Shown: positions 11,239 through 20,779, counted from the stretch's first letter. The stretch: DNA of 64,000 nt from an uncultured Actinomycetes bacterium (GCA_963841735.1 CAWJDT010000001.1:1344001-1408000); one strand, 5' to 3'. A program made the numbers and translations. The notes: generated by a model from the sequence alone, not told the origin.

Positions 11239-11661
11239 CTAGAGTTCCGTCAGCAGCTTTACGACGGTCTTCTCGTCGTCGGCCGTGTCCACCCCGATAT
11301 GCGCGACGAACTTGGTGCCCAGACCGGCAGCGGAAAAGCCGCGCATGTTGACTCCGGCATCTCCAATGGCCCCCGCAAGGGCGGCTGCGACTCCGGGCTC
11401 GTTGGGCCCCTCTACGCGAACCGAGTGCAGCCTGGAGGTGACGGCAAACCCGACTGCCGCCGCCGCCTGGATCTCGCGGTCGCCTCGGAGTGGGGTCACG
11501 AAGATGACGCCGGTGCCGGACTTCTCGGGTGCGCGCCGCACTATGACGAAGTCGAGATCCACGCCGGCGGCGTTCAGCGCCGACAGCACAAGTGCCAACG
11601 CCCCCGGCTTGTCATTCATGCTCGCCGCCCAGACGTCCTCTCTCTCCACGAGCAAGTCCAT
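11239..11661 (-). CDS. Tandem ACT-domain (amino acid-binding) protein
   Basis: DKPGALA..L..AGVDL and NEPGVAA..I.DAGVNM ACT repeats; GGAG RBS before MDLLVE. Confidence 0.75.
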   Translation of the reverse strand: MDLLVEREDVWAASMNDKPGALALVLSALNAAGVDLDFVIVRRAPEKSGTGVIFVTPLRGDREIQAAAAVGFAVTSRLHSVRVEGPNEPGVAAALAGAIGDAGVNMRGFSAAGLGTKFVAHIGVDTADDEKTVVKLLTEL

Positions 11662-12120
11662 GATCACTCCTTCCCGCGTAGCCTGCATGGATTCTCAAGC
11701 CAGAGACTACCCACATCCCTCGGGCCTCATTCGCGCGGTCAGAAAGTCACGACTTCGGCCTATCCCGGCGCCTGGGATACCGGACGGCATTCGAACCCAA
11801 GGCTAGGGCCCCAGCCCGCCCGCTCCTCAGCCGTCCACTTGCGCGAGGAGGCCAAGGGCCGCTTCCCTTTGTCTTGGAGCGCGTCTCGACGAGTGTCTTG
11901 CTGGCGTTTCGGGGAGGCCGACCCTCGCACGTCATCTTCGAACGTCGCATCTCCCCGAGGCTGTAATGTCAGGCGGAAGTGGCAAGGCGTGCCGCCCCGC
12001 CCCGCTTGACTCCCCGTGGGGCGGCATATACAGATGGGATGAGAAGGCCGACCTCCCCCGGAGTACCGTGAGGTCCCCAATCAGAGTCGGGCTCGTGGGC
12101 CCAAATGAAGGAGGCCAGCC

Positions 12121-13203
12121 ATGTGCGATGCTAGCACCACCGAGCAAGCGAAGGTGACCGTGGGTCTCGATCTGAGCGACCGTTGTTGTCAGATCTGTGT
12201 GCTCGACGAAGCGGGCGAGGTGACCGAGGAGGGCCGGGTGACGACCAAGCCGGAAGCCTTGCGTCGCCGCTTCTCCGGGGCGGATCCGCTACGCATCGTG
12301 ATCGAGGCCGGCACCCACTCCCCCTGGGTTAGCCGTCTGCTTTCCGAACTTGGACACGACGTTGTCGTGGCCAATCCCCGCAAGCTCCGCTTCATCTACC
12401 AGAACGACTCGAAGTCAGACCGGGTGGACGCCGAGTACCTGGCCCGGGTCGGTCGTCTGGACCCGGAGCTGCTGGCCCCCCTCACCCATCGGAGAGCCGA
12501 GACCCAGTCCGACCTCGCGCTTGTGCGCAGTCGCAATGCCCTGGTCAGGGCTCGCACCCGTCTGATCAGTCATGCCCGCGGCTGCACGAAGTCCTTGGGC
12601 AGCCGCCTGCCCACCTGCGCGAGCGACGTCTTTGCCCAAAAGGCCGGGCCGTGTGTCCCCGAGGAGCTTGCTCCCGCCCTGGCTCCGGTCCTCACCGTCA
12701 TCCAGAACATCTCCGATGAGATCCGCGCTCTCGATCAGAAGATCGAAGACATGGCCAAGGAGCGCTACCCAGAGACCGCGCTTCTCTCCCAGGTGCCCGG
12801 CGTGGGCACGCTTACGGCCACAGTCTATGTCCTTACCGTGGAAGATCCCGAGCGCTTCCCCAAGTGCCGCTCGGTGGGCTCGTATCTCGGCCTCAGGCCC
12901 CGGCAGGCAAGCTCCGGTTCCCTGGAGCCTCAGCTGCGCATCACCAAAGCCGGGGACGAGCACCTGCGCTGGCTCCTCGTGAGCGCCGCCCACTACATCC
13001 TCGGGCCCTTCGGCCCGGACTCGGATCTCAGGCGTTGGGGTCTTGCCTTGGCCGCGCAGGGCGGCAAGCGGGGCAAGAAGCGAGCGGTAGTGGCGGTGGC
13101 CCGCAAGCTCTCGGTGCTCCTCCTGCACCTCTGGAGGACCGGTGAGGTCTACGAGCCACTGCGCAACGTCCGGCTCCGCGGCGAGACTGCGCCCACCACC
13201 TAG
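12121..13203 (+). CDS. IS110-family DEDD recombinase/transposase
   Basis: GLDLS, IEAG, KSDRVDA (RuvC-like DEDD); VPGVG, SYLGL.P..ASSG, KRAVVAVARKL; AAGGAGG RBS. Confidence 0.95.
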   Translation: MCDASTTEQAKVTVGLDLSDRCCQICVLDEAGEVTEEGRVTTKPEALRRRFSGADPLRIVIEAGTHSPWVSRLLSELGHDVVVANPRKLRFIYQNDSKSDRVDAEYLARVGRLDPELLAPLTHRRAETQSDLALVRSRNALVRARTRLISHARGCTKSLGSRLPTCASDVFAQKAGPCVPEELAPALAPVLTVIQNISDEIRALDQKIEDMAKERYPETALLSQVPGVGTLTATVYVLTVEDPERFPKCRSVGSYLGLRPRQASSGSLEPQLRITKAGDEHLRWLLVSAAHYILGPFGPDSDLRRWGLALAAQGGKRGKKRAVVAVARKLSVLLLHLWRTGEVYEPLRNVRLRGETAPTT

Positions 13204-13546
13204 GAGCGGTGAAGATGAGAGATGCCGACGGGAAGGATCGATAACCAAGGAAGACCGGCGGGTGAACCCATCGCAGGAGACCAGCAAAAAGACCAACCGC
13301 CCAGGGTGAAAGCGACTGCGCACACAGACTCGGCCGTACAGAACGACACCAACCCGGTGCCGTCCCCAAGGCCGCTATACAGATAGCAGCGCTTCCCCCC
13401 GGCCGGACCCCAACGTGCACCGGGTCCCGCCATAGGTTCCCGACAAAAAGTGCGAATGGAAGCGTGGCCGTGGTCTTGGCTCTTCGCGGCGGAAGAGGGA
13501 TGATAGAAACCGAGCAGAGGAGGAAGAAGCAACCCAAGAATCGCTC
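13204..13546 (+). ncRNA. Putative bridge/seek RNA region of the IS1111 element (exact ends unknown)
   Basis: Stem-internal loop-stem at 13310-13394 carrying CAGACT (13325-30) and TATACAG (13376-82), matching the reconstructed target TATAC-AG-TCTG; ATGGAAG (13456-62) matches the donor junction. Confidence 0.7.
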
Positions 13547-13572
13547 TTGACACCGGCCGGCTTCTCATGGAA

Positions 13573-13675
13573 GTCTGCATAACCCCAAGACCGCGCGAGC
13601 GTCTTGGGCCCAGAAACCGCTCGGCAGGCCGACCAGGGGGGCCGTTTTGAGATTCGCACCCGGAGTTATGCAGAC
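13573..13675. repeat. About 100-bp segment with 11-bp terminal inverted repeats (MITE-like, or atypical attC)
   Basis: GTCTGCATAAC (13573-83) / GTTATGCAGAC (13665-75); internal hairpin CCCAAGAC / GTCTTGGG; no clear L boxes. Confidence 0.5.
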
Positions 13676-13698
13676 ACCCTGGTGCTTCGTCGGTCTAT

Positions 13699-13731
13699 TT
13701 GGGCAGACTGGATAAGCATTGTTGGGCAGAC
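13699..13731 (+). other. Putative integron attI site
   Basis: Core GTTGGGC (13721-27) is the exact complement of R'' GCCCAAC of the first attC; direct repeat TTGGGCAGAC at 13699-708 and 13722-731; no attC-type hairpin. Confidence 0.55.
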
Positions 13732-13837
13732 GCTCGGGACTGTGCCGAGAAACGGACCCGTGTTCATGGAACGACCCCATGAACCAGGATGGACTGGACT
13801 GATGCGTAGACACGTCAAGATGAGAGGGACTACCACG

Positions 13838-14341
13838 GTGAAACCGGCGAACGGAGAAGGACCTTGGTTCACTGAGCTGGATGAAGGTTCGCCCCTCTTC
13901 CTCGAGGCCGTCCGACGGGCCAGGGCGACCGCCCCGTCATTCATCCAGGCCTACACCGCGAAGAAGTACCCAGAGGCTGCTTTCCTCATAAAGGTCCCCT
14001 TCGACAGGATGGGCCCCGAAGGTCGCTGCAGAGTCCGGAGCGCAGACGATGCAGGAGCACTCGGCGAGGCCTACATGCATCTCTGGATGCTTGTGCACGA
14101 CGCGCTCGATGATCTTCTGTTTGCACACACCTTCGAGTTCCCAGAGGGCTTGGTCGGCCTTGACGTCGGCCAAACCTATGTGATAGGCCCAGACAGAATC
14201 GAAGACTGGATGATCAATGAGCAGGGAGTCGTGTTCGGTGCCTTCACTCTGAGGCTCCAAAGGGACGCGCTTCCCGAAGCCGAGCGGCCACGCTTTGATG
14301 CTCACACTGGCATCGTGCGCTTTTCCGACGAGCTGCCGTGA
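13838..14341 (+). CDS. Cassette 1: DUF2314/YegJ-like protein
   Basis: AVRRARAT..F, FLIKVPF, HLW, IEDWMI, GAFTLR pattern; GTG start after GAGGGA (ATG at 13820 is an alternative). Confidence 0.7.
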   Translation: MKPANGEGPWFTELDEGSPLFLEAVRRARATAPSFIQAYTAKKYPEAAFLIKVPFDRMGPEGRCRVRSADDAGALGEAYMHLWMLVHDALDDLLFAHTFEFPEGLVGLDVGQTYVIGPDRIEDWMINEQGVVFGAFTLRLQRDALPEAERPRFDAHTGIVRFSDELP

Positions 14342-14367
14342 AGGGCTGAACTGCTCGATGCCTCGCT

Positions 14368-14428
14368 GCCCAACAAGCCGGTGCAACGGACGCCCTTCGG
14401 GCGCCGCTGACCGGCTGAGACGTTAGCC
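14368..14428 (+). repeat. attC site 1 (61 bp)
   Basis: GCCCAAC-aagcc-GGTGCAAC...CGCCC-TTC-GGGCG...GCTGACC-N9-GTTAGCC. Confidence 0.88.
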
Positions 14429-14484
14429 GCACTCGTCCCAAGGTTGCATGTGTACGTGTCCGATTCGCGAGGTATCATCAAGCC

Positions 14485-14697
14485 ATGAGCATGCCTGCTA
14501 TCGATATCAACGCCATGGAGCCCGAAGAGCGTCTGCGACTCATCGGTGATCTCTGGGACTCCCTCACTGAGAGCCAGGAGGACGTCGGCCTTACGCCGGG
14601 TCAGCGCGCTGAACTCGACCGTCGCCTAGACAGACTGGAGTCTGGTAAGGCGAAGCTAGTGTCTTGGGACGAGCTCAAGGCGCGACTTGTCGGCTGA
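14485..14697 (+). CDS. Cassette 2: addiction module antitoxin (TIGR02574-like)
   Basis: EERLRLIGDLWDSL, QRAELDRRL, SWDELKARL; TATCAT 6 nt before ATG (leaderless). Confidence 0.85.
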   Translation: MSMPAIDINAMEPEERLRLIGDLWDSLTESQEDVGLTPGQRAELDRRLDRLESGKAKLVSWDELKARLVG

Positions 14698-15001
14698 GCC
14701 GGCTCGTGCGGTCTGGCTTCTCGATGAGGCGGAAGACGATATCGCCGCCGCGTTCGAATGGTATGAATCCAGACGTCTCGGGCTTGGTGCGGAGTTCATA
14801 CACGCAGTCGACGGGGTGCTTGTCTCGTTGCTTGACTTCCCAGAATCACGCGAGGCCGTCCACCGGAGTACTCGCCGCTGTCTCGTGGGGAGATTCCCTT
14901 TCGAGATCTTCTACCGCTTGGAGCCGGGTCTTCTGGTCGTCGTCGCGTGCATGCACGCTGCTCGCGATCCCAAGGCTGTGCTTAGGCGTATCGGCGGCTA
15001 A
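14687..15001 (+). CDS. Cassette 2: RelE/ParE-family toxin
   Basis: EAEDDIAAAFEWYE, GLGAEF, RRCLVGRFPFEIFYR, VACMHAARDP; stop TAA lies in R'' of attC2. Confidence 0.88.
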   Translation: MSAEPARAVWLLDEAEDDIAAAFEWYESRRLGLGAEFIHAVDGVLVSLLDFPESREAVHRSTRRCLVGRFPFEIFYRLEPGLLVVVACMHAARDPKAVLRRIGG

Positions 15002-15056
15002 CAAGTCGGTGCAGCAGACGCCCTTCGGGCGCGGCTGACGCGCTGAGTCGTTGGCG
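14996..15056 (+). repeat. attC site 2 (61 bp)
   Basis: GGCTAAC-aagtc-GGTGCAGC...CGCCC-TTC-GGGCG...GCTGACG-N9-GTTGGCG; closely similar to attC1. Confidence 0.9.
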
Positions 15057-15074
15057 ACATCTTCGGGAGGTCAG

Positions 15075-15506
15075 ATGGAGCCGCGGATCAGCATCGTTTC
15101 GCTTGGCGTTGACGACTTGCCTCGCGCGATTCGCTTCTACCGTGATGGGTTGGGTCTGCCCACATCGGCGGCTGACGACGCGAGCATTGCGTTCTTTCAG
15201 ACTTGGGGCACGTGCTTCGCGTTGTATCCAAGAGACGGCCTCGCGGCTGACATCTCCTCCGACCTTGCGTCCGCGGCTTCACCGTTCTCGGGCGTGACGC
15301 TCGCGTACGTGGCGCGTTCCGTGCAGGAGGTCGATGACACGCTGGCGTTGGCAGAGCGTGCCGGCGGCACGATTGCCAAGCCTGCGCAGAAGGTGTTTTG
15401 GGGCGGATACAGCGGCTACTTCAGGGATCCAGATGGACACTACTGGGAGGTTGCGTACTGGGACGAGTGGGTGTTCAAGTCTGACGGAAGTCTGGTCATC
15501 GAGTAG
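15075..15506 (+). CDS. Cassette 3: VOC/glyoxalase family protein
   Basis: RISIVSLGVDDL.RA.RFYRDGLG, KPAQKVFWGGYSGYFRDPDGHYWEVA; GGGAGG RBS. Confidence 0.92.
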   Translation: MEPRISIVSLGVDDLPRAIRFYRDGLGLPTSAADDASIAFFQTWGTCFALYPRDGLAADISSDLASAASPFSGVTLAYVARSVQEVDDTLALAERAGGTIAKPAQKVFWGGYSGYFRDPDGHYWEVAYWDEWVFKSDGSLVIE

Positions 15507-15507
15507 T

Positions 15508-15686
15508 CGCTAACGAGCGCGATGCCGCGCCCAAAACAGTCCCGATGCGGCCGGGTCATCGAAGCCGACTTCGGAGCCCATTGCGTGGCGGTTGCGGTGT
15601 AGGATTGATATAGGAGCAACAGCCGACTTCCTGCGTTGTCATATATCACGGCCGACGGGCGCGGCTGACCGGCATGAACGTTGGGT
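15508..15686 (+). repeat. attC site 3, interrupted or composite
   Basis: R'' CGCTAAC (15508-14) and right arm GGGCGCGGCTGACC-N9-GTTGGGT (to 15686) are 179 bp apart versus 61 bp in attC1/2. Confidence 0.65.
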
Positions 15687-15705
15687 GCAGAATGTTGGAG
15701 CGGAT

Positions 15706-16139
15706 ATGCAGATGATAACTGGAAGCTGTTTGTGCGGTCATATTGCATACGAGTACACAGGGGAGCCTGGCCCTTCAAGTTATTGCCATTGTTCGGACTG
15801 CAGGAAAGTAACAGGAACTGCCTTTATGGTAAGCGTTCGTTTTGAAGCAAGATTCTTTAGAATCACTACCGGCAATAATACTAAGAGCTATACCAAAATC
15901 GCTGACAGCGGCAATAGCATTACAAGGGACTTTTGTCCAAATTGTGGTTCTCCGATTTTCACAGCATCACCACACTGACCCGGAATATATCTGGGTAAGA
16001 GCAGGTACTTTGGACGATTCAAGCTTTATCAAGCCGGCCCATCAAAGCTGGACTGATTCAAAAGTCGAGTGGGCTGATATTCCGGACGATATAGAAAGCT
16101 TTCGAAAAGGTCGTCCACAAGACGGAGTTATCACCCAAC
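15706..16139 (+). pseudogene. Cassette 4: GFA (DUF636) family protein, frameshifted
   Basis: GSCLCG, CHCSDCRK, RDFCPNCGSPI, then shift near 15975 to PEYIWVRAGTLDD..HQSWTDSK.EW; visibly AT-richer than host. Confidence 0.85.
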
Positions 16140-16190
16140 ACCGGCATCAAGACCGACCGCTATCGCGGCGGTCTATGGTATGCGTTAGGC
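16133..16190 (+). repeat. attC site 4 (58 bp, different sequence type)
   Basis: ACCCAAC...AGACCGACCGC-TATC-GCGGCGGTCT...GTTAGGC; R'' complements GTTGGGT at the cassette start. Confidence 0.8.
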
Positions 16191-16414
16191 AGGCTCGTGC
16201 GACGCTTCAATGCTCTGAGGTCTAGACCCTGGCTGTCGCCCGACCTTGCGAAGAGGTTGGATGGATGCTTTCTTGTATGGTGTTTGCCGGGTGGCAACAG
16301 CCATTCATGAACTCCCGGCCATTGCGTACACGCGCGGAATGAGACTGACTGGGGCGGGTCGGATTCTGAGTCAGGACTGCACGGTGAAAACGAGAACAAG
16401 AAGGAGCCGATAAG

Positions 16415-18097
16415 TTGAAGACAAGAACAGGAACACTCTGCCTTCTGATCGCCTGCGCTATGGCTCTGATGTTCACTCTTGCGGGCTGCGGTGGATCAAG
16501 TGAAACCACGGCGGCCGCGATAGATCCCGAAGACGAAGCGCTCTCGTTTGCCGGTGTGGCTGGTGAAAAGTACGACGTGATGCTCGACGGGGCACCTATC
16601 GGCATAACCAAGTACTTGGTCACCTACGTTGCCAGTCCTATTCAGATGTCCGATGAGGTGGCAGTCAAAGACGACACCACGCAGTCGAAGATGGACCTCT
16701 ATGCAAGGCAGAAGATGTACATCTATGTGCCTGACGTCTCGGCTGATGATCAGGGCGCGGCTATCATCCTGCAGGTGGACAACGCTGGTTGGGTGAGCAG
16801 CCCGGTGCGGGACGTTCTGCCGGTAGGCAGCAAGGCGGTCAGCAATTCGGACAAGGACCCACTCGGTGCCGCCTTGAAGGCCGGTTACATCATCGTCAGG
16901 GCCGGCACGCGCAGCCGCGGACTCACTGCCGCGGACGGCACGTATGCCGGTCATGCTCCGGCGGTCGTCGTAGACGCAAAAGCGGCGATACGGTACCTCA
17001 AGCTCAATGACGAGAAGATGCCCGGATCGGCAGGCAGGATCGTCATCACCGGGACAAGCGGCGGCGGTGGCCTCTCGGTGGCAGTGGCGGCCAGCGGTAA
17101 CAGCCCCGACTACTACCCGTATCTGCAAGAGATCGGGGCCGCGGGAATCGACGCGAACGGCAATAGCACGCTCACCGACGACGTATTCGCAACGGTCGCC
17201 TATTGCCCGATCACCGACCTCGACCACGCGGACATCGCCTACGAGTGGCAGTATGGAGCGACGAGGCTGCTTGGTGACTACACCAAAGGCGAGCCTGAGA
17301 CCCCGGTTTCCGATGACATGAAGGCTGTATCCGCGGAACTTGCGGCCCAATACCCCGCGTATCTTGCCGGCCTCGGGCTGAAGCTCGATGATGGCACGGC
17401 GCTTACCGCCGAAACCATGCCGAGCGCGATTGAAGCGCTGGTAAGAGCCGGAGTCGAAAAGGCGATGGCAGGCGGCGATACTGTGCCGGATCTGGGCGAA
17501 CAGTGGACATTCGGCGCCAGTAGTGCGACCAACGAATGGCTGGATGTTGACAATGACGCTGACACCGTTGTGAGTATCGACTACACCAAGTACCTTGAAT
17601 TCGTAGTCACGATGACTCAGCTCAAGACGGCCCCCGCGTTCGAGAGCTATGGCACGCCGCTCCAGGGCATAATGAATGAGTCCAGCCTCGCCGGCGACGA
17701 AACACAGGAGTACAACCACTGGTTGCGTTGGTCGTGGGAAAACGACGCCAAGCCCGGTAACGGAGTAGGTTTGGACGACACCGCACTAGCCTTTGATCAG
17801 TTCATGAGCACCGACGCCGGCAAGGCAGTGACGAAGCAGATGAAAATGATCAACCCGCTGCCATACCTCTTGAGCAACGAAGAAGGCGACAGCGCGCCGT
17901 ACTGGTATGTCCGTCACGGAATGCGCGACCGCGACACGTCATTTGCAGTCGAGGTGGCGTTGTTCTACGCGATCCAGAGCGATCCGACCGTCAAGGGTGC
18001 CAACTACGCACTGGCCTACATGCAACCGCACGCCGGCGACTACGACGTCCAGGAGGCCTACGCCTGGCTCGCGGGAGTCTTGGCGACGGCGGAGTAG
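16415..18097 (+). CDS. Subtype B tannase-like alpha/beta hydrolase lipoprotein
   Basis: Lipobox LAGC; VDAKAAIRYL, GTSGGG nucleophile, YCPITDLDHAD.AYEW, RHGMRDRDTS, HAGDYD; AAGGAG RBS before TTG. Confidence 0.85.
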   Translation: MKTRTGTLCLLIACAMALMFTLAGCGGSSETTAAAIDPEDEALSFAGVAGEKYDVMLDGAPIGITKYLVTYVASPIQMSDEVAVKDDTTQSKMDLYARQKMYIYVPDVSADDQGAAIILQVDNAGWVSSPVRDVLPVGSKAVSNSDKDPLGAALKAGYIIVRAGTRSRGLTAADGTYAGHAPAVVVDAKAAIRYLKLNDEKMPGSAGRIVITGTSGGGGLSVAVAASGNSPDYYPYLQEIGAAGIDANGNSTLTDDVFATVAYCPITDLDHADIAYEWQYGATRLLGDYTKGEPETPVSDDMKAVSAELAAQYPAYLAGLGLKLDDGTALTAETMPSAIEALVRAGVEKAMAGGDTVPDLGEQWTFGASSATNEWLDVDNDADTVVSIDYTKYLEFVVTMTQLKTAPAFESYGTPLQGIMNESSLAGDETQEYNHWLRWSWENDAKPGNGVGLDDTALAFDQFMSTDAGKAVTKQMKMINPLPYLLSNEEGDSAPYWYVRHGMRDRDTSFAVEVALFYAIQSDPTVKGANYALAYMQPHAGDYDVQEAYAWLAGVLATAE

Positions 18098-18101
18098 GGC
18101 G

Positions 18102-18150
18102 GGTCAACACTTAGTCGCAACACCTTCGCTGACGCGCTGGGACGTTAGTG
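18102..18150 (+). repeat. Degenerate attC site 5
   Basis: Right arm GCTGACGCGCTGGGAC-GTTAGTG nearly matches attC2; left arm truncated (CAAC at 18105-08 and 18118-21). Confidence 0.55.
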
Positions 18151-18229
18151 TCGCCGGTCCGGCCCCAGGAATGAGTACAGGTCGTGCGTCAGGAACTGCA
18201 CCCGGTCTTCTCCGCCTGATGCGGGCAGA

Positions 18230-20779
18230 CTACGGGTTGCCGCTTGTCCAGGCAGCAGCGTGCGGGTTCTCGCCCTCCCGACGCGACCATCCGACTGCGA
18301 CTAGGCGGTCGCCGATGCCGACGACGTCGGAGACTATGCCGTAGAGAGCCAAGTGGTCGTTGGCCCCGCCTGCCTGGGGAAGCGGTTCCCACCGGGCCCA
18401 GAAGGCAAGGTCCGCGGTAGACCACACGGCCGGGTGATCGTGACCGGCCCTGGGGATTGCGCCGCTCACGAACAGGCGGGAGCCGATGACCGAGAGACCC
18501 GCCACTTCCCCTTCCTCGCCGGCGGCCTCGAGGGCGGAGACGGCGTCGAAGGCAATGAGGGCCCAAGATCGGAGGTCCGCAGTCACCAGCACCACCGGCG
18601 ACCAGGTGCCGTTGGTGACCCTGTCGCCGACGATCACCAAGCGGTCGTCGAATGTGATGGGGTGGGTGCTAACCCGGAAGCCGGCGAACGCGGGGTCATC
18701 CGGCAGGCGGGTCCAACCCTGCCCGTCTGGGGAGGCCCACAGCGAGAGAGACCCGGTCTTGGCGTCGGTGCGCACAAGAACGAGTTGTCCTGCCACTTCG
18801 AGGATGCCGCCCACAGGGTCGCTCCCCGGTGGTTGGGCGACGGCGGTATCGGTCCAAGTCCGGCCATCCGCGGAGGTCCACAGTGCCGGCGTGGTGAAGT
18901 CGGAGAACCCGTACGCGTACAACTGCCCGCGACCCTGCCAGATACCCTGAATGTCACCTCTGGTCGCACTCGGTACGACCGCCTTCTGCCACGAAGACAG
19001 GTCCGTAGACCACCAGATGGCTCCGCGCAAGTCCCACCCTGTCGTGATGATGGTGCCGTTGAAAGAGGCTACGCTCTCAAGGCCGATGACGACGCCCCGG
19101 GGGGGCACGGGGGCGGCGCGGCGGGACCAGATGCTCCCATCCACCGACGTCCACACGAATGCTTCCGTCGCCGCGGAGGACTGAGTGGAGTTGCTCCCGA
19201 CTGCGACGATCCCGTTCTCACCGGCGACCGCGCTCGCGATCCAACTGAAGTCGGGCGCCTCGAACCGGGGGGCTTCACGCCAGGTACCCGTGGGCGTGAC
19301 ATCGGCTCTTGGAGAGGCGACCCAGATCGCCCCGTCCCCAGCGCCGTACGTTCCCTGCTCGCCGACCACGATGAGGGTCCCGTTCTGGGCGAGAGCGTGG
19401 TGAGGATACTGAGGACCGGGGAGCGCCCCCACTGCTCCCTGATGCCAGGTGGACCCGTCTTTGGATTCCCACACTATGAGATCCGGATCGGTGGGCGCCC
19501 CGGTGCGGCCCACGACGACAAGGGTCCCGGCGCTCTCCACGACCGTATCCATCACGGTCCATGGACCCCGTCCGGCGAAGTTGGCGTGCAGCATGCTGGG
19601 GGTGTACTCGGTCTCGTTGCCCAATCGGATCCAGCTCTCGCCGTCGGCGGAGGTCCACACTGCCGCGACCGACGTGCCGGCTGTGGTCTGATCGGCGCCT
19701 ACAGCTACAAACCCGGGACTCCCCGCGGCGATATCCCAGGCGAACACCCTGGCATCGGCATTGGCCGGGTTGAAGTCGCTGACCGCGGTGGTGAGATTGA
19801 CGTGGTCTACCCGGGTGAACCCGCTGCCGACCGCGCCGCGCCAGATGCCGGCATTCGGACGATCCTCGCCTGTAGCGACCATCACACCATCGGAAACCGC
19901 GACGCCCAACATCTGCTGGACCCCGGGTTCGGCGATCGTACCCGCCACCCAGAGGGAACCGTCGGAACTAGTCCACCACGCAGAATCGATGTCGCCGTTG
20001 TTGTTTACCAACCCGACGGCTACATATCCGCCTGGGTACGCCACCAGATCGGAAATCTGCTGAGCTCCGGCCGGAAGGATGCCGTCCGGGGCGGGCTGGC
20101 GGACCCAGGTGATGCCGTCGTCCGAGGTCCATGCCGCGAACACAGGCGGGTCGGTCAGGCTCCGGCCTACCCCCACCAGAGTCCCGTCGGGTGCCGACAC
20201 CACATGGAGCAGATGCGCCCCCTCCAGACCAAGGGCAGGCTCCGGGGTCCACGACACGCCATCGGGGCTCATCCACACCGTCGCCTGAGCCGAGATGCCG
20301 ACCGCGACATAGCCTTCACCGAGCGCGGCAACGTCCCACAGACTTTGACCACCCTCGCCACCGAGACCCGCGTCGGCGACCGTGTGCCAAGCTGCCCCCG
20401 ATACCGTCACCGGCCCCGGTAGCGGGACCGTCGTGACAGGCGCGGATGTCGAGGGTGGGGTGGTGCTCGAGGTCGAAGACGACACCGCACCCGACGTCTG
20501 AAGAGTCGACGATGTCACCGGCAGCGTCGCCGCTGCTCCGTCGTCTTTTCCTCCGCGGGTGAGCATGAACACGATCGCCACGGCAGCGGCAGCCAGAACC
20601 ACCACGACTATAAGGGTCACCCACAACCCCACATGAGACCGAACTGGGGGCGGAGGTAGCGGCTGCCCCTGTATCGGTACCCTTCCGGGAGCGCCGCACA
20701 CCTTGCAGAACCGGTCGCCCGCCGAAATGGGATGTCCGTTCACACAAAACACTGCCGTCCCCTTTGGTCGCTCCACCAT
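18230..20779 (-). CDS. Zinc-ribbon + single TM + Ser/Thr linker + WxSxDG-repeat extracellular protein
   Basis: FCVNGH...FCKVCG, Pro-rich stretch, TM helix, then many W-x-S-x-D-G-x-x-W (Asp-box-like) repeats. Confidence 0.75.
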   Translation of the reverse strand: MVERPKGTAVFCVNGHPISAGDRFCKVCGAPGRVPIQGQPLPPPPVRSHVGLWVTLIVVVVLAAAAVAIVFMLTRGGKDDGAAATLPVTSSTLQTSGAVSSSTSSTTPPSTSAPVTTVPLPGPVTVSGAAWHTVADAGLGGEGGQSLWDVAALGEGYVAVGISAQATVWMSPDGVSWTPEPALGLEGAHLLHVVSAPDGTLVGVGRSLTDPPVFAAWTSDDGITWVRQPAPDGILPAGAQQISDLVAYPGGYVAVGLVNNNGDIDSAWWTSSDGSLWVAGTIAEPGVQQMLGVAVSDGVMVATGEDRPNAGIWRGAVGSGFTRVDHVNLTTAVSDFNPANADARVFAWDIAAGSPGFVAVGADQTTAGTSVAAVWTSADGESWIRLGNETEYTPSMLHANFAGRGPWTVMDTVVESAGTLVVVGRTGAPTDPDLIVWESKDGSTWHQGAVGALPGPQYPHHALAQNGTLIVVGEQGTYGAGDGAIWVASPRADVTPTGTWREAPRFEAPDFSWIASAVAGENGIVAVGSNSTQSSAATEAFVWTSVDGSIWSRRAAPVPPRGVVIGLESVASFNGTIITTGWDLRGAIWWSTDLSSWQKAVVPSATRGDIQGIWQGRGQLYAYGFSDFTTPALWTSADGRTWTDTAVAQPPGSDPVGGILEVAGQLVLVRTDAKTGSLSLWASPDGQGWTRLPDDPAFAGFRVSTHPITFDDRLVIVGDRVTNGTWSPVVLVTADLRSWALIAFDAVSALEAAGEEGEVAGLSVIGSRLFVSGAIPRAGHDHPAVWSTADLAFWARWEPLPQAGGANDHLALYGIVSDVVGIGDRLVAVGWSRREGENPHAAAWTSGNP

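Follow-up and report, generated by a model that had tools for sequence, protein, structure and literature searches.

The stretch of DNA analysed here, called the window, is 64,000 nucleotides long (C1:1344001-1408000) and comes from the 2.8-Mb genome (8 contigs) of an uncultured bacterium. A putative attI site and five co-oriented cassettes, each bounded by an attC site, occupy window positions 13574-18150 on the plus strand. Upstream lie an insertion sequence (IS) and the 3′ remnant of an integron-integrase gene (intI).

11966..12024, plus strand: 3′ remnant of intI; firm part 12001-12019, then GGCGG
13574..13723, plus strand: putative attI; two AGTTAYRCAGAC-like repeats (about 13664-13676 and 13699-13711), crossover GTT at 13721-13723
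13721..14430, plus strand: cassette 1; DUF2314 reading frame 13802-14341 (PF10077, E=2.9e-10), attC1
14366-14430, plus strand: attC1; covariance model 80.9 bits, bottom-strand fold z=-3.8
14422..15058, plus strand: cassette 2; antitoxin gene 14485-14697, ParE-family toxin gene 14687-15001, attC2
14994-15058, plus strand: attC2; covariance model 71.2 bits
15050..15687, plus strand: cassette 3; VOC/glyoxalase-family gene 15075-15506 (PF00903, E=6.5e-17), attC3
15506-15687, plus strand: attC3, long; covariance model 24.6 bits, outside the training set
15680..16190, plus strand: cassette 4; GFA gene with a frame change near 15970, attC4 (16132-16190)
16184..18150, plus strand: cassette 5; lipoprotein alpha/beta hydrolase gene 16415-18097 (560 aa), attC5
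18101-18150, plus strand: attC5, short; covariance model 31.6 bits

Cassette cargo and cassette boundaries

The first-pass annotation had listed a toxin–antitoxin (TA) pair and VOC, GFA and DUF2314 proteins as cargo. Pfam searches returned the same families, and a tannase-like gene and the frame change in the GFA gene can be added. The TA pair of cassette 2 matches PF09720 and PF05016, and also TIGR02574; such a ParE-type cassette would stabilise the array. In cassette 4, the reading frame 15592-15978 of the GFA (glutathione-dependent formaldehyde-activating) family covers profile positions 1-84 of the 115 of PF04828, the C-terminal part lying in another frame. The hydrolase of cassette 5 is subtype B tannase-like (NF041556, 341 bits at a cut-off of 300; PF20434). 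At 15-17 kb the G+C content of the cassettes is 0.566-0.571, lower than that of the flanks (0.62-0.67). A scan of positions 11600-18400 for the sigma-70 consensus, which may not be that of this lineage, gave a single site, on the minus strand, where 1.4 were expected; no plus-strand site, and so no promoter-like one ahead of the array, was found.

As a consequence of the G|TT crossover, the first bases of a cassette are complementary to its own R″. Complementarity over 8-9 nt had been claimed for cassettes 1-4, and direct reading bears this out. Cassette 1 starts with GTTGGGCAG (13721-13729) and has the R″ CTGCCCAAC (14366-14374), and for cassette 2 the pair is GTTAGCCGC (14422-14430) and GCGGCTAAC (14994-15002); both are complementary at 9/9 positions. 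Cassette 3 pairs GTTGGCGAC (15050-15058) with GTCGCTAAC (15506-15514) at 8/9, cassette 4 GTTGGGTG (15680-15687) with CACCCAAC (16132-16139) at 8/8. Cassette 5 breaks the rule that the other four of the five follow: its start GTTAGGCAG (16184) and R″ CGGGTCAAC (18100) match at AAC and two positions only. Over the six variable core positions, agreement is 6, 6, 5 and 2 for cassettes 1, 2, 3 and 5, and 5 for cassette 4 (read by eye); the non-cognate start/R″ pairings in the window have a mean of 2.5 of 6 (25 pairs). In a genome of the same genus (G133), 20 of 26 adjacent pairs agree at five or more of the six positions, compared with 8.8% of 703 non-cognate pairs. Complementarity of this kind is what insertion of the cassettes at attI by IntI-catalysed attI × attC recombination would leave behind.

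The attC family

The inverted outer cores R″ (RYYYAAC) and R′ (GTTRRRY) can be read in all five attC sites of the window, some departing from the R/Y pattern at one position, e.g. GTTAGCC. We built a covariance model (R1) from eight attC sites of the host genome itself and searched the whole window with the filters off. Four matches had E<=8e-5, all on the plus strand and within the array (14368-14428, 14996-15056, 15529-15686 and 18102-18150); the next best stood at E=0.3. Three of the four are training sequences and attC3 is not, and attC4 was not found by R1 in this search. The 3′ half of attC3 is common to the prevalent 90-nt attC type of the genome. Genome-wide, R1 gave 17 matches with E<=1 (the eight training sites and nine new ones), all on the array strand within five of the six arrays described below; since 150 of 645 first-look candidates were scored, attC sites elsewhere in the genome are not strictly excluded. 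Around the IntI genes of other genomes there were 88 matches, every one on the IntI strand and 87 downstream of intI, with a match at 34 of 86 loci; 27 of the 88 belong to G133, within 20 kb downstream of its IntI.

The structural register of the eight-site alignment is specific: 77.7% of cells are paired in it, and sliding the partner leaves no more than 42.6% paired. The inner L″/L′ helix comprises 12 pairs, 76% of its cells being paired, and leaves a single base of the 5′ arm (column 16) extrahelical, and the outer AAC/GTT core is invariant in 8/8 sites (pairs 5-91, 6-90 and 7-89). Between the R and L boxes, the paired stretch of these sites appears longer than is usual in class 1 attC sites. 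Covariation in the alignment did not exceed the shuffle control (four double-change pairs, 3.6 expected), and an Rfam scan matched no family and returned no attC family.

The repeats might be REP- or terminator-like intergenic elements whose core complementarity arose by chance, in which case the locus would not be an integron. While the weak covariation and the empty Rfam scan would suit such elements, the placement of the repeats would not: the latter occur only downstream of IntI genes or remnants and on the IntI strand (17/17 here, 88/88 elsewhere). The cores of cassettes 1-4 (6, 6, 5 and 5 of 6) and the adjacent pairs of G133 likewise stand apart from their non-cognate pairings. This explanation is already contradicted, and we give it practically no weight. 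The covariance search had been set beforehand as a possible refutation of the cassette array, and a proteobacterial host was another; the model matches sites of the window, and the host lies outside the proteobacteria. The cassette-array reading was right.

Integron platforms of the host genome

The host is placed in Actinomycetota by inference, on the basis of WhiB, which is present in 44 of 81 genomes of the same phylum. The designation ‘actinomycete’ holds at that level, but the host's class is without WhiB and CrgA. IntI proteins above the curated cut-off were found in 16 of 101 genomes of this class and, in an even sample of the whole phylum, in 20 of 301. Complete-genome surveys give integrons as nearly absent from Actinobacteria (PMC9024848; PMC13323075), with no complete integron in one of them (PMC9024848); the rarity assumed at first agrees with these surveys but does not extend to this lineage, with its 16 of 101 genomes.

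The genome contains six integron platforms, two with an intact intI (C1:809628-810572, the nearest at 547 kb from the window locus, and C6:31559-32503) and four with intI remnants. The intact proteins score 485.6 and 455.3 bits on TIGR02249 (cut-off 265, exceeded in none of 14 control genomes), and VchIntIA (PDB 2a3v) can be aligned with IntI over the full length, at 296 bits. All 8 PF00589 and 10 TIGR02249 matches of the genome lie outside the window, which confirms that the 64 kb hold no tyrosine recombinase reading frame. The statement that no integrase is nearby stands for an intact gene but misses the 3′ remnant directly upstream, beyond the IS, and the genome at large does encode two intact integrases.

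Positions 12001-12033 are 91% identical over 34 nt to the intact intI ends plus target site (blastn E=1e-6), the former stop codon TAG having become TGG (bases 17-19 of 12001-12019), and the left-junction alignment of five platforms backs the assignment. About the last 35-50 nt of intI survive; upstream of them no recognisable intI was found (tblastn E>=0.05). With so short a remnant, loss by deletion is deduced from the paralogues and not seen directly. Downstream of intI, or of what remains of it, all six platforms have a stretch homologous to window positions 13574-13723 (65-94% identical), and the window copy is 88-94% identical to the one beside an intact intI and to that of another platform. 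Platform sequences diverge right after a conserved ...ATTGTT, and cassette-type sequence starts after GTT in each, which suggests that this stretch functions as attI.

An orphan array is excluded by attI and the intI remnant directly upstream; separated by the IS, the two mark the locus as a decayed complete integron. Originally, intI, attI and cassettes would have followed one another on one strand; of intI the last few dozen bases are left, and the IS lies between remnant and attI. We consider it highly probable that the locus is a co-oriented (‘inverted-integrase’) chromosomal integron which lost its integrase and kept attI and five cassettes intact. This conclusion draws on the parts and their order, the five paralogous platforms and the specificity of the attC model, all directly observed. 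Treponema denticola is an example of the inverted-integrase type, with intI and cassettes on the same strand. The type is named as such in the methods of PMC13323075. Both intact platforms share its arrangement, with intI, attI and cassettes on one strand, as do the 88/88 attC matches on the strand of related IntI genes from many phyla; the host phylum Actinomycetota and the presence of six platforms in one 2.8-Mb genome set the present case apart.

The sedentary chromosomal integrons of Vibrio have TA cassettes, homogeneous lineage-specific attC sites and small accessory enzymes as cargo. The same traits are found here, but in short arrays (2-5 attC sites each) over six platforms and not in one large array; G133, unlike the host genome, has one large array. 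IntegronFinder uses a default attC-to-integrase cluster distance of 4 kb. With five attC sites in 14366-18150 and the nearest intact intI 547 kb away, the locus counts formally as a CALIN, though one in which attI is retained. CALINs are clusters of attC sites lacking an integron-integrase, defined with IntegronFinder and proposed to be degraded integrons with fewer cassettes than complete ones (Cury et al. 2016 PMC4889954; Neron et al. 2022 PMC9024848). The locus resembles them in having at least two attC sites and no integrase gene nearby. It differs in that attI still adjoins the first cassette and the adjacent intI, expected of a complete integron, persists as a recognisable 3′ stub, so that decay is caught mid-way, and in that five sister platforms of the same genome show intact and intermediate states.

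The two intact IntI paralogues can probably still shuffle the array in trans; the attI and attC sites of their own platforms belong to the same sequence families as those of the window. Cassettes recur between arrays: the TA cassette has a 91% identical copy in G133, between two attC matches; arrays C6_31 (third position) and C1_392 (first) have one cassette in common (86% over 715 nt), and C1_810 and C5_151 share attI and the first cassette (98.5% over 1089 nt). Alternatively, the array could be a dead relic without an acting integrase, its cassettes fixed chromosomal genes and its attC sites decaying, which we regard as rather unlikely. Its own intI is gone, but two intact IntI genes reside in the same cell, and its attI has stayed 88-94% identical to one beside an intact intI and to that of another platform. 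Folding is mixed: attC1 and attC4 (bottom strand, z=-3.3) are well-formed hairpins, whereas attC2 (z 0.2, with two mismatches in the L stem), attC3 as a whole (z 0.09) and attC5 (z -0.07) fold no better than shuffles. The lost complementarity of cassette 5 and the shortness of the array (five cassettes, compared with at least 27 attC matches in the array of G133) are in keeping with a relic, as is the GFA frameshift; a frame change is seen in rpoB too, however, so that the one in GFA may have arisen in assembly.

The insertion sequence between intI and attI

The element upstream of attI is delimited as follows.

12025..12033, plus strand: left half of the IS target site, CATATACAG, seen by comparison with the empty site
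12034..13573, plus strand: IS110/IS1111-family element, 1540 bp, between the intI stop and attI
12121..13203, plus strand: DEDD transposase gene, 360 aa (PF01548 and PF02371)
13204..13573, plus strand: non-coding region 3′ of the transposase gene, 370 nt, the place expected for an IS1111-type seekRNA
13574-13582, plus strand: right half of the target site, TCTGCATAA, seen by comparison with the empty site

The uninterrupted target, ...GGCGGCACATACAG|TCTGCATAAAC..., can be read in platform C1:392, which lacks the IS. A 2-nt ambiguity (AG) affects the ends of the element, and a placement at 12032-13571 is equally possible. The transposase matches NF033542, ‘IS110 family RNA-guided transposase’, with 217.7 bits (cut-off 140); its gene has 87 nt of the element upstream and 370 nt downstream. 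The sub-terminal inverted repeat reads ATGAGAAG(G)CCG; counting the ambiguous AG as part of the left end makes its extensions 7 and 3 nt long. PMC11187229 characterizes IS1111 elements by a longer non-coding region 3′ of tnp, where the seekRNA, which pairs with target and donor, is positioned, and by a sub-terminal inverted repeat of about 11-13 bp, extended by 7 bp on the left and by 3 bp on the right. The present element thus has the family features, namely a DEDD transposase with an IS110-type C-terminal domain, the longer 3′ region, and the repeat with its extensions. Its non-coding region contains TATACAGAT, identical to the left target/IS junction, together with further 6-7-mers that occur in target and donor; it had no Rfam match.

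The genome holds five copies of the IS, 99.87-100% identical and all with the 360-aa reading frame intact, whereas the flanking attI regions are 65-94% identical. All five occupy the identical junction in five platforms, past the intI stop and ahead of attI; no copy lies in an attC, and the sixth platform has the empty site. This suggests a recent invasion of five of the six platforms. No relative of the transposase was found beside intI in 88 loci of other genomes.

Near-identical copies of a 1.5-kb element could mislead an assembler, and the array, or IS and array, might have been joined through the repeat from another organism or locus. The genome is 89.7% complete with 2.33% contamination, synteny with two same-genus genomes ends at about 10,750 in the window, upstream of the locus, and these two share little of 18.2-38 kb. 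The locus nevertheless lies inside a 1.77-Mb contig. The flank with the intI remnant is unlike that of all other platforms, which rules out a duplicate join; the attI here is related to but distinct from theirs, and the TA cassette and attC type of the locus are common to a same-genus genome. Such a chimera is very improbable.

The IS is presumably a site-specific, RNA-guided element recognising CATATACAG|TCTGCATAA immediately 3′ of the stop codon of intI. It is quite possible, though somewhat short of probable, that an RNA-guided IS1111-type element evolved specificity for the intI–attI junction of co-oriented integrons and swept five of six diverged platforms in a deep-branching, WhiB-less actinomycetotal lineage. 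The present IS can be compared with the IS1111-attC group (ISPa21, ISKpn4, ISPst6; Tetu & Holmes 2008; Post & Hall 2009). Members of that group insert into attC sites of gene cassettes; the targeting of ISKpn4 and ISPst6 is described in PMC11187229. The present IS shares with the group the DEDD transposase, the long non-coding region 3′ of tnp, the sub-terminal inverted repeat (extended by 7 nt and 3 nt when AG counts as left-end sequence) and strict site specificity for an integron component; its target, however, is the interval between intI stop and attI of co-oriented integrons, not attC.

If the proposed specificity holds, the IS would represent a new integron-targeting group, aimed at the platform and not at the cassettes, and a natural programmable DEDD recombinase directed to a defined platform site, for which an empty site, filled sites and a candidate guide region are all at hand for testing. 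With the same 1.5-kb repeat placed between each integrase and its array, the two could become uncoupled, cassette expression could change, and homologous recombination could exchange arrays among platforms or remove intI; this would be one route by which CALINs arise. Uncultured actinomycetotal lineages do carry integrons, as this genome shows, and its platform series (two intact, four decayed, one of the six IS-free) documents the passage from an integron to an orphan cassette cluster.

The cassette array and its attC sites

Sequence reading delimited five plus-strand units at 13.7–18.15 kb, each starting with GTTRRRY and ending in an imperfect palindrome. The outer left core of the closing palindrome, RYYYAAC, is the complement of the opening bases of the same unit, except in cassette 5. 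The first-pass annotation had reported core complementarity over 8–9 nt for cassettes 1–4, and direct reading gave the same extent: start and R'' match at 9/9 positions in cassettes 1 and 2, at 8/9 in cassette 3 and at 8/8 in cassette 4, while cassette 5 is complementary to its own R'' at AAC only. Over the six variable core positions, cassettes 1–3 score 6, 6 and 5, cassette 4 five of six (by eye) and cassette 5 two; the mean of the 25 non-cognate start/R'' pairings is 2.5 of 6.

Pfam recovered the cargo proposed earlier (TA pair, VOC, GFA and DUF2314) as DUF2314, an Unstab_antitox/ParE pair, Glyoxalase/VOC and GFA. Cassette 5 encodes a 560-aa lipoprotein that scores 341 bits on the NCBIfam model for subtype B tannase, above its cut-off of 300. 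A 225-nt non-coding leader (window 16190–16415) separates attC4, which closes cassette 4, from the tannase-like gene; taken with the absent start/R'' complementarity of cassette 5, the leader may point to a fused or ORF-less cassette. In the GFA gene (window 15960–16000), ...FTASPH is followed by TGA, and the conserved C-terminal part VRAGTLDD continues in the next frame. Given this frame change near 15970, the gene is a pseudogene or else the assembly has an indel here. The rpoB gene of the host genome G000 (L094, C1:122993–126436) was matched by its profile in three frames, in pieces without internal stops; the assembly therefore probably carries indel errors, of which the GFA frame change may be one. 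The G+C content of the cassettes is 0.566–0.571 at 15–17 kb, lower than in the flanks. An Rfam scan of 11500–18500 (E ≤ 1) gave no match, and a promoter and terminator scan returned counts at chance level and identified no promoter.

The attC model was based on an alignment of eight sites, of which three are in the window and the other five lie outside it in G000. The RNAalifold consensus paired L' with R', which is not the attC fold; the attC structure was therefore supplied by hand: R'' pairs with R' and L'' with L', the spacer between the two helices stays single-stranded, and one base of the L''/L' helix is left unpaired. In the imposed register 77.7% of cells are paired, compared with 17.6–42.6% when the partner is slid by 1–3 columns. 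Covariation in the eight-site alignment did not rise above the shuffle control. An unfiltered search of the window with the resulting covariance model (R1) gave four matches at E ≤ 8e-5, all on the plus strand within the array, the next match being at E = 0.3. The absence of covariance-model matches, named in the first-pass annotation as part of a refutation, was thus not what R1 showed. The matches include attC3, though it was outside the training set; attC4 was not recovered by R1 in the window. Bottom-strand hairpins were found for attC1 (z = −3.8) and attC4 (z = −3.3), and attC2, attC3 and attC5 folded no better than shuffles.

Across G000, where 150 of 645 first-look candidates were scored, R1 gave 17 matches at E ≤ 1, nine of them outside the training set; every match scored lies inside an integron array, on the array strand. 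As an independent test, R1 was run on 86 IntI-gene loci of other genomes, which yielded 88 matches at E ≤ 0.01, spread over 34 of the loci; every one of the 88 is on the IntI strand, and all but one (87) lie downstream of intI. In the same-genus relative G133, 27 matches lie within 20 kb after IntI, and adjacent cassette starts agree with their own R'' at five or more of six positions in 20 of 26 cases, against 8.8% of 703 non-cognate pairs. At this locus (L108, G133 C2:80500–100499) the relative has a single large integron, co-oriented, whose attC, at least 27 within 20 kb, are uniformly of a ~92-nt type; its intI and attI are not separated by an IS.

attI, integrase genes and sister platforms

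The stretch 13574–13723 is conserved after intI or its remnant in all six platforms of G000 (the window, C1:810, C6:31, C5:151, C1:403 and C1:392 kb). It ends ...ATTGTT, after which different cassettes follow, and carries two AGTTAYRCAGAC-like repeats; on these sequence features it is read as attI. Absence of an integrase nearby, as first annotated, holds in so far as the 64 kb contain no intact IntI and profile searches of the window found no tyrosine-recombinase domain; a 3' remnant of intI, however, lies upstream of the array. This remnant comprises the last ~35–50 nt of the gene (91% identity over 34 nt), its stop TAG changed to TGG, and the 330 nt between it and the neighbouring ACT-domain gene show no further recognisable intI sequence.

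The genome-wide IntI search suggested in that annotation did find integrase: two intact genes, at C1:809628–810572 and C6:31559–32503, score 485.6 and 455.3 bits, respectively, on TIGR02249 (cut-off 265, exceeded in 0/14 control genomes). The two share 80% identity, and the former can be aligned over its full length with VchIntIA (PDB 2a3v; 296 bits). The platforms at C5:151, C1:403 and C1:392 kb have intI 3' remnants of varying length. In all six platforms intI, attI and cassettes are co-oriented, the layout named 'inverted-integrase' in PMC13323075.

Several cassettes recur. The TA cassette of the window is found in the G133 array at 91% identity, between two attC matches ~12 kb from IntI, and one cassette is common to the C6 array (third position) and the C1:392 array (first position), at 86% over 715 nt. 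The C1:810 and C5:151 platforms have attI plus first cassette in common (C1:812131–813219 and C5:149998–148910, 98.5% over 1089 nt), and differ beyond this stretch; one of them has an intact intI, the other only a remnant. The C1:403 platform (L010, C1:394000–404500) carries the IS and a diverged attI (65% identity); R1 recognised no attC there, and its first core is GTCGGG instead of GTTRRR. In another C1 excerpt (L001, 958–1387), a 148-nt unit in 2.9 tandem copies (96% matching) sits between a CoA-ligase-like gene and the intact intI start.

Start/R'' complementarity, attI and the R1 matches bear out an integron-like cassette array. To judge from its sequence, the window locus is a decayed co-oriented integron turned CALIN (a cluster of attC sites lacking integron-integrase) with its attI retained, a locus of known kind. 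Here and below, recombination and transposition activity are inferred.

An IS element at the intI–attI junction

Between the intI remnant and attI, the ORF at 12121–13203 encodes a DEDD transposase (PF01548 and PF02371 in Pfam; NF033542 at 217.7 bits), and BLAST of window 11.9–13.8 kb against G000 found four further IS copies. At the left junction of every copy, the intI 3' end or remnant (...SPLDSL-stop) is followed by GGCGG or a variant and then CATATACAG; at the right junctions, alignment gave the identical continuation TCTGCATAA... in all copies. The sixth locus, at C1:392 kb, is an empty site, reading ...TAGGGCGGCACATACAG|TCTGCATAAAC... uninterrupted, and therefore defines the IS as window 12034–13573 (1540 bp), with ends ambiguous by the dinucleotide AG. 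When AG is assigned to the left end, the IS has a sub-terminal inverted repeat of 11–12 nt, extended by 7 and 3 nt; its non-coding regions measure 87 nt upstream and 370 nt downstream of tnp. Such repeat/extension and non-coding features separate IS1111-type from IS110-type elements, according to PMC11187229.

Identity among the five copies is 99.87–100%, and in each the 360-aa ORF is preserved; the ~150 nt that follow on the right are only 65–94% identical between loci. From this difference the insertions are independent events of far later date than the platforms, except in the case that the copies were made alike by gene conversion. The downstream non-coding region holds TATACAGAT, equal to the left target/IS junction, plus other 6–7-mers of target and donor; these words would fit a seekRNA, short of proof. 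At window 13360–13390, ...CCCCAAGGCCGCTATACAGATAGC... joins a 7-mer from the right target flank to the target/IS 9-mer of the left junction, and is a candidate for the guide segment in the putative seekRNA.

No related transposase was found beside intI in 88 loci of other genomes, nor a description of an IS targeting attI or the intI end in the literature outside subscription journals. In a further excerpt (L011, 6589–6722; C1:815.6 kb), an attC match of 47 bits lacks a canonical R'', with TTTTCATGG in place of RYYYAAC, and is preceded by ...CATGGAAG, which resembles the IS right end. A possible second IS end inside attC (~6630) was not supported, no transposase ORF being present there.

Surroundings, host lineage and IntI distribution

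Synteny with two same-genus genomes spans window 5.6–10.75 kb and then ends. The shared gene order up to ~10750 comprises ACAD and upstream genes (75–89% amino-acid identity, tblastx); the RidA and ACT-domain genes and all beyond are absent from the corresponding locus in both relatives. Since synteny ends at ~10.75 kb and little of 18.2–38 kb is found in these genomes, the array locus is situated on the margin of a variable region. Three public DNA runs carry 5–7% of the sampled words, mostly as IS-like pieces at 90–99% identity; in one of them, a contig runs from the right end of the IS into attI, and 227 nt of the tannase gene are matched without a difference. These matches were not counted as evidence, and no RNA run was listed among the runs carrying sampled words.

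WhiB (PF02467), CrgA, Spo0A and LpxC are all absent from G000 (89.7% complete). WhiB, known only from Actinomycetota, occurs in 44 of 81 sampled same-phylum genomes including G000 (41/78 without the unpublished G001, G018 and G048), in Corynebacterium only among 14 named controls, and in none of the five further genomes sampled from the class of G000. From its presence in same-phylum genomes and its restriction to that phylum we infer that the host belongs to Actinomycetota, in a class without WhiB; the 'probable actinomycete' of the first-pass annotation is thereby settled at phylum level only. A weak hint of Bacillota from EF-Tu look-alikes in the protein atlas was set aside as uninformative, phylum being known for only 4–19 members per cluster. 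Domain 1 of the EF-Tu of G000 (L095, 1495–2700) contains four cysteines in one stretch (...HGCGDRECSKCGS...), which may be a zinc-binding insertion useful for taxonomy. The best non-IntI matches of the flank ORFs (blastp-fast) are flanks in Actinomycetota MAGs at 46–63% identity, which is suggestive only.

Published surveys of cultured or complete genomes agree with the rarity of integrons in Actinomycetota claimed at first: IntegronFinder 2.0 gave zero complete integrons, one In0 and a few CALINs for Actinobacteria (PMC9024848), and a permafrost study speaks of a 'virtual absence' of integrons from Actinomycetota (PMC13323075). In the host's class, however, IntI exceeded the curated cut-off in 16 of 101 genomes; across the phylum it did so in 20 of 301 sampled (18/299 without the unpublished G177 and G238). 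In a scan of named genomes, G000 itself not among them, close IntI relatives (61–79% identity) occur in MAGs labelled Actinomycetes, Thermoleophilia and Coriobacteriia, and also in those labelled Desulfobacterota-type taxa, Planctomycetota, Nitrospira and others. A search of the literature outside subscription journals found no description of integrons in actinomycetotal MAGs. Two aspects are worth following: the IS1111-type element aimed at the intI–attI junction, undescribed in the literature searched, and the abundance of integron platforms in an actinomycetotal lineage.
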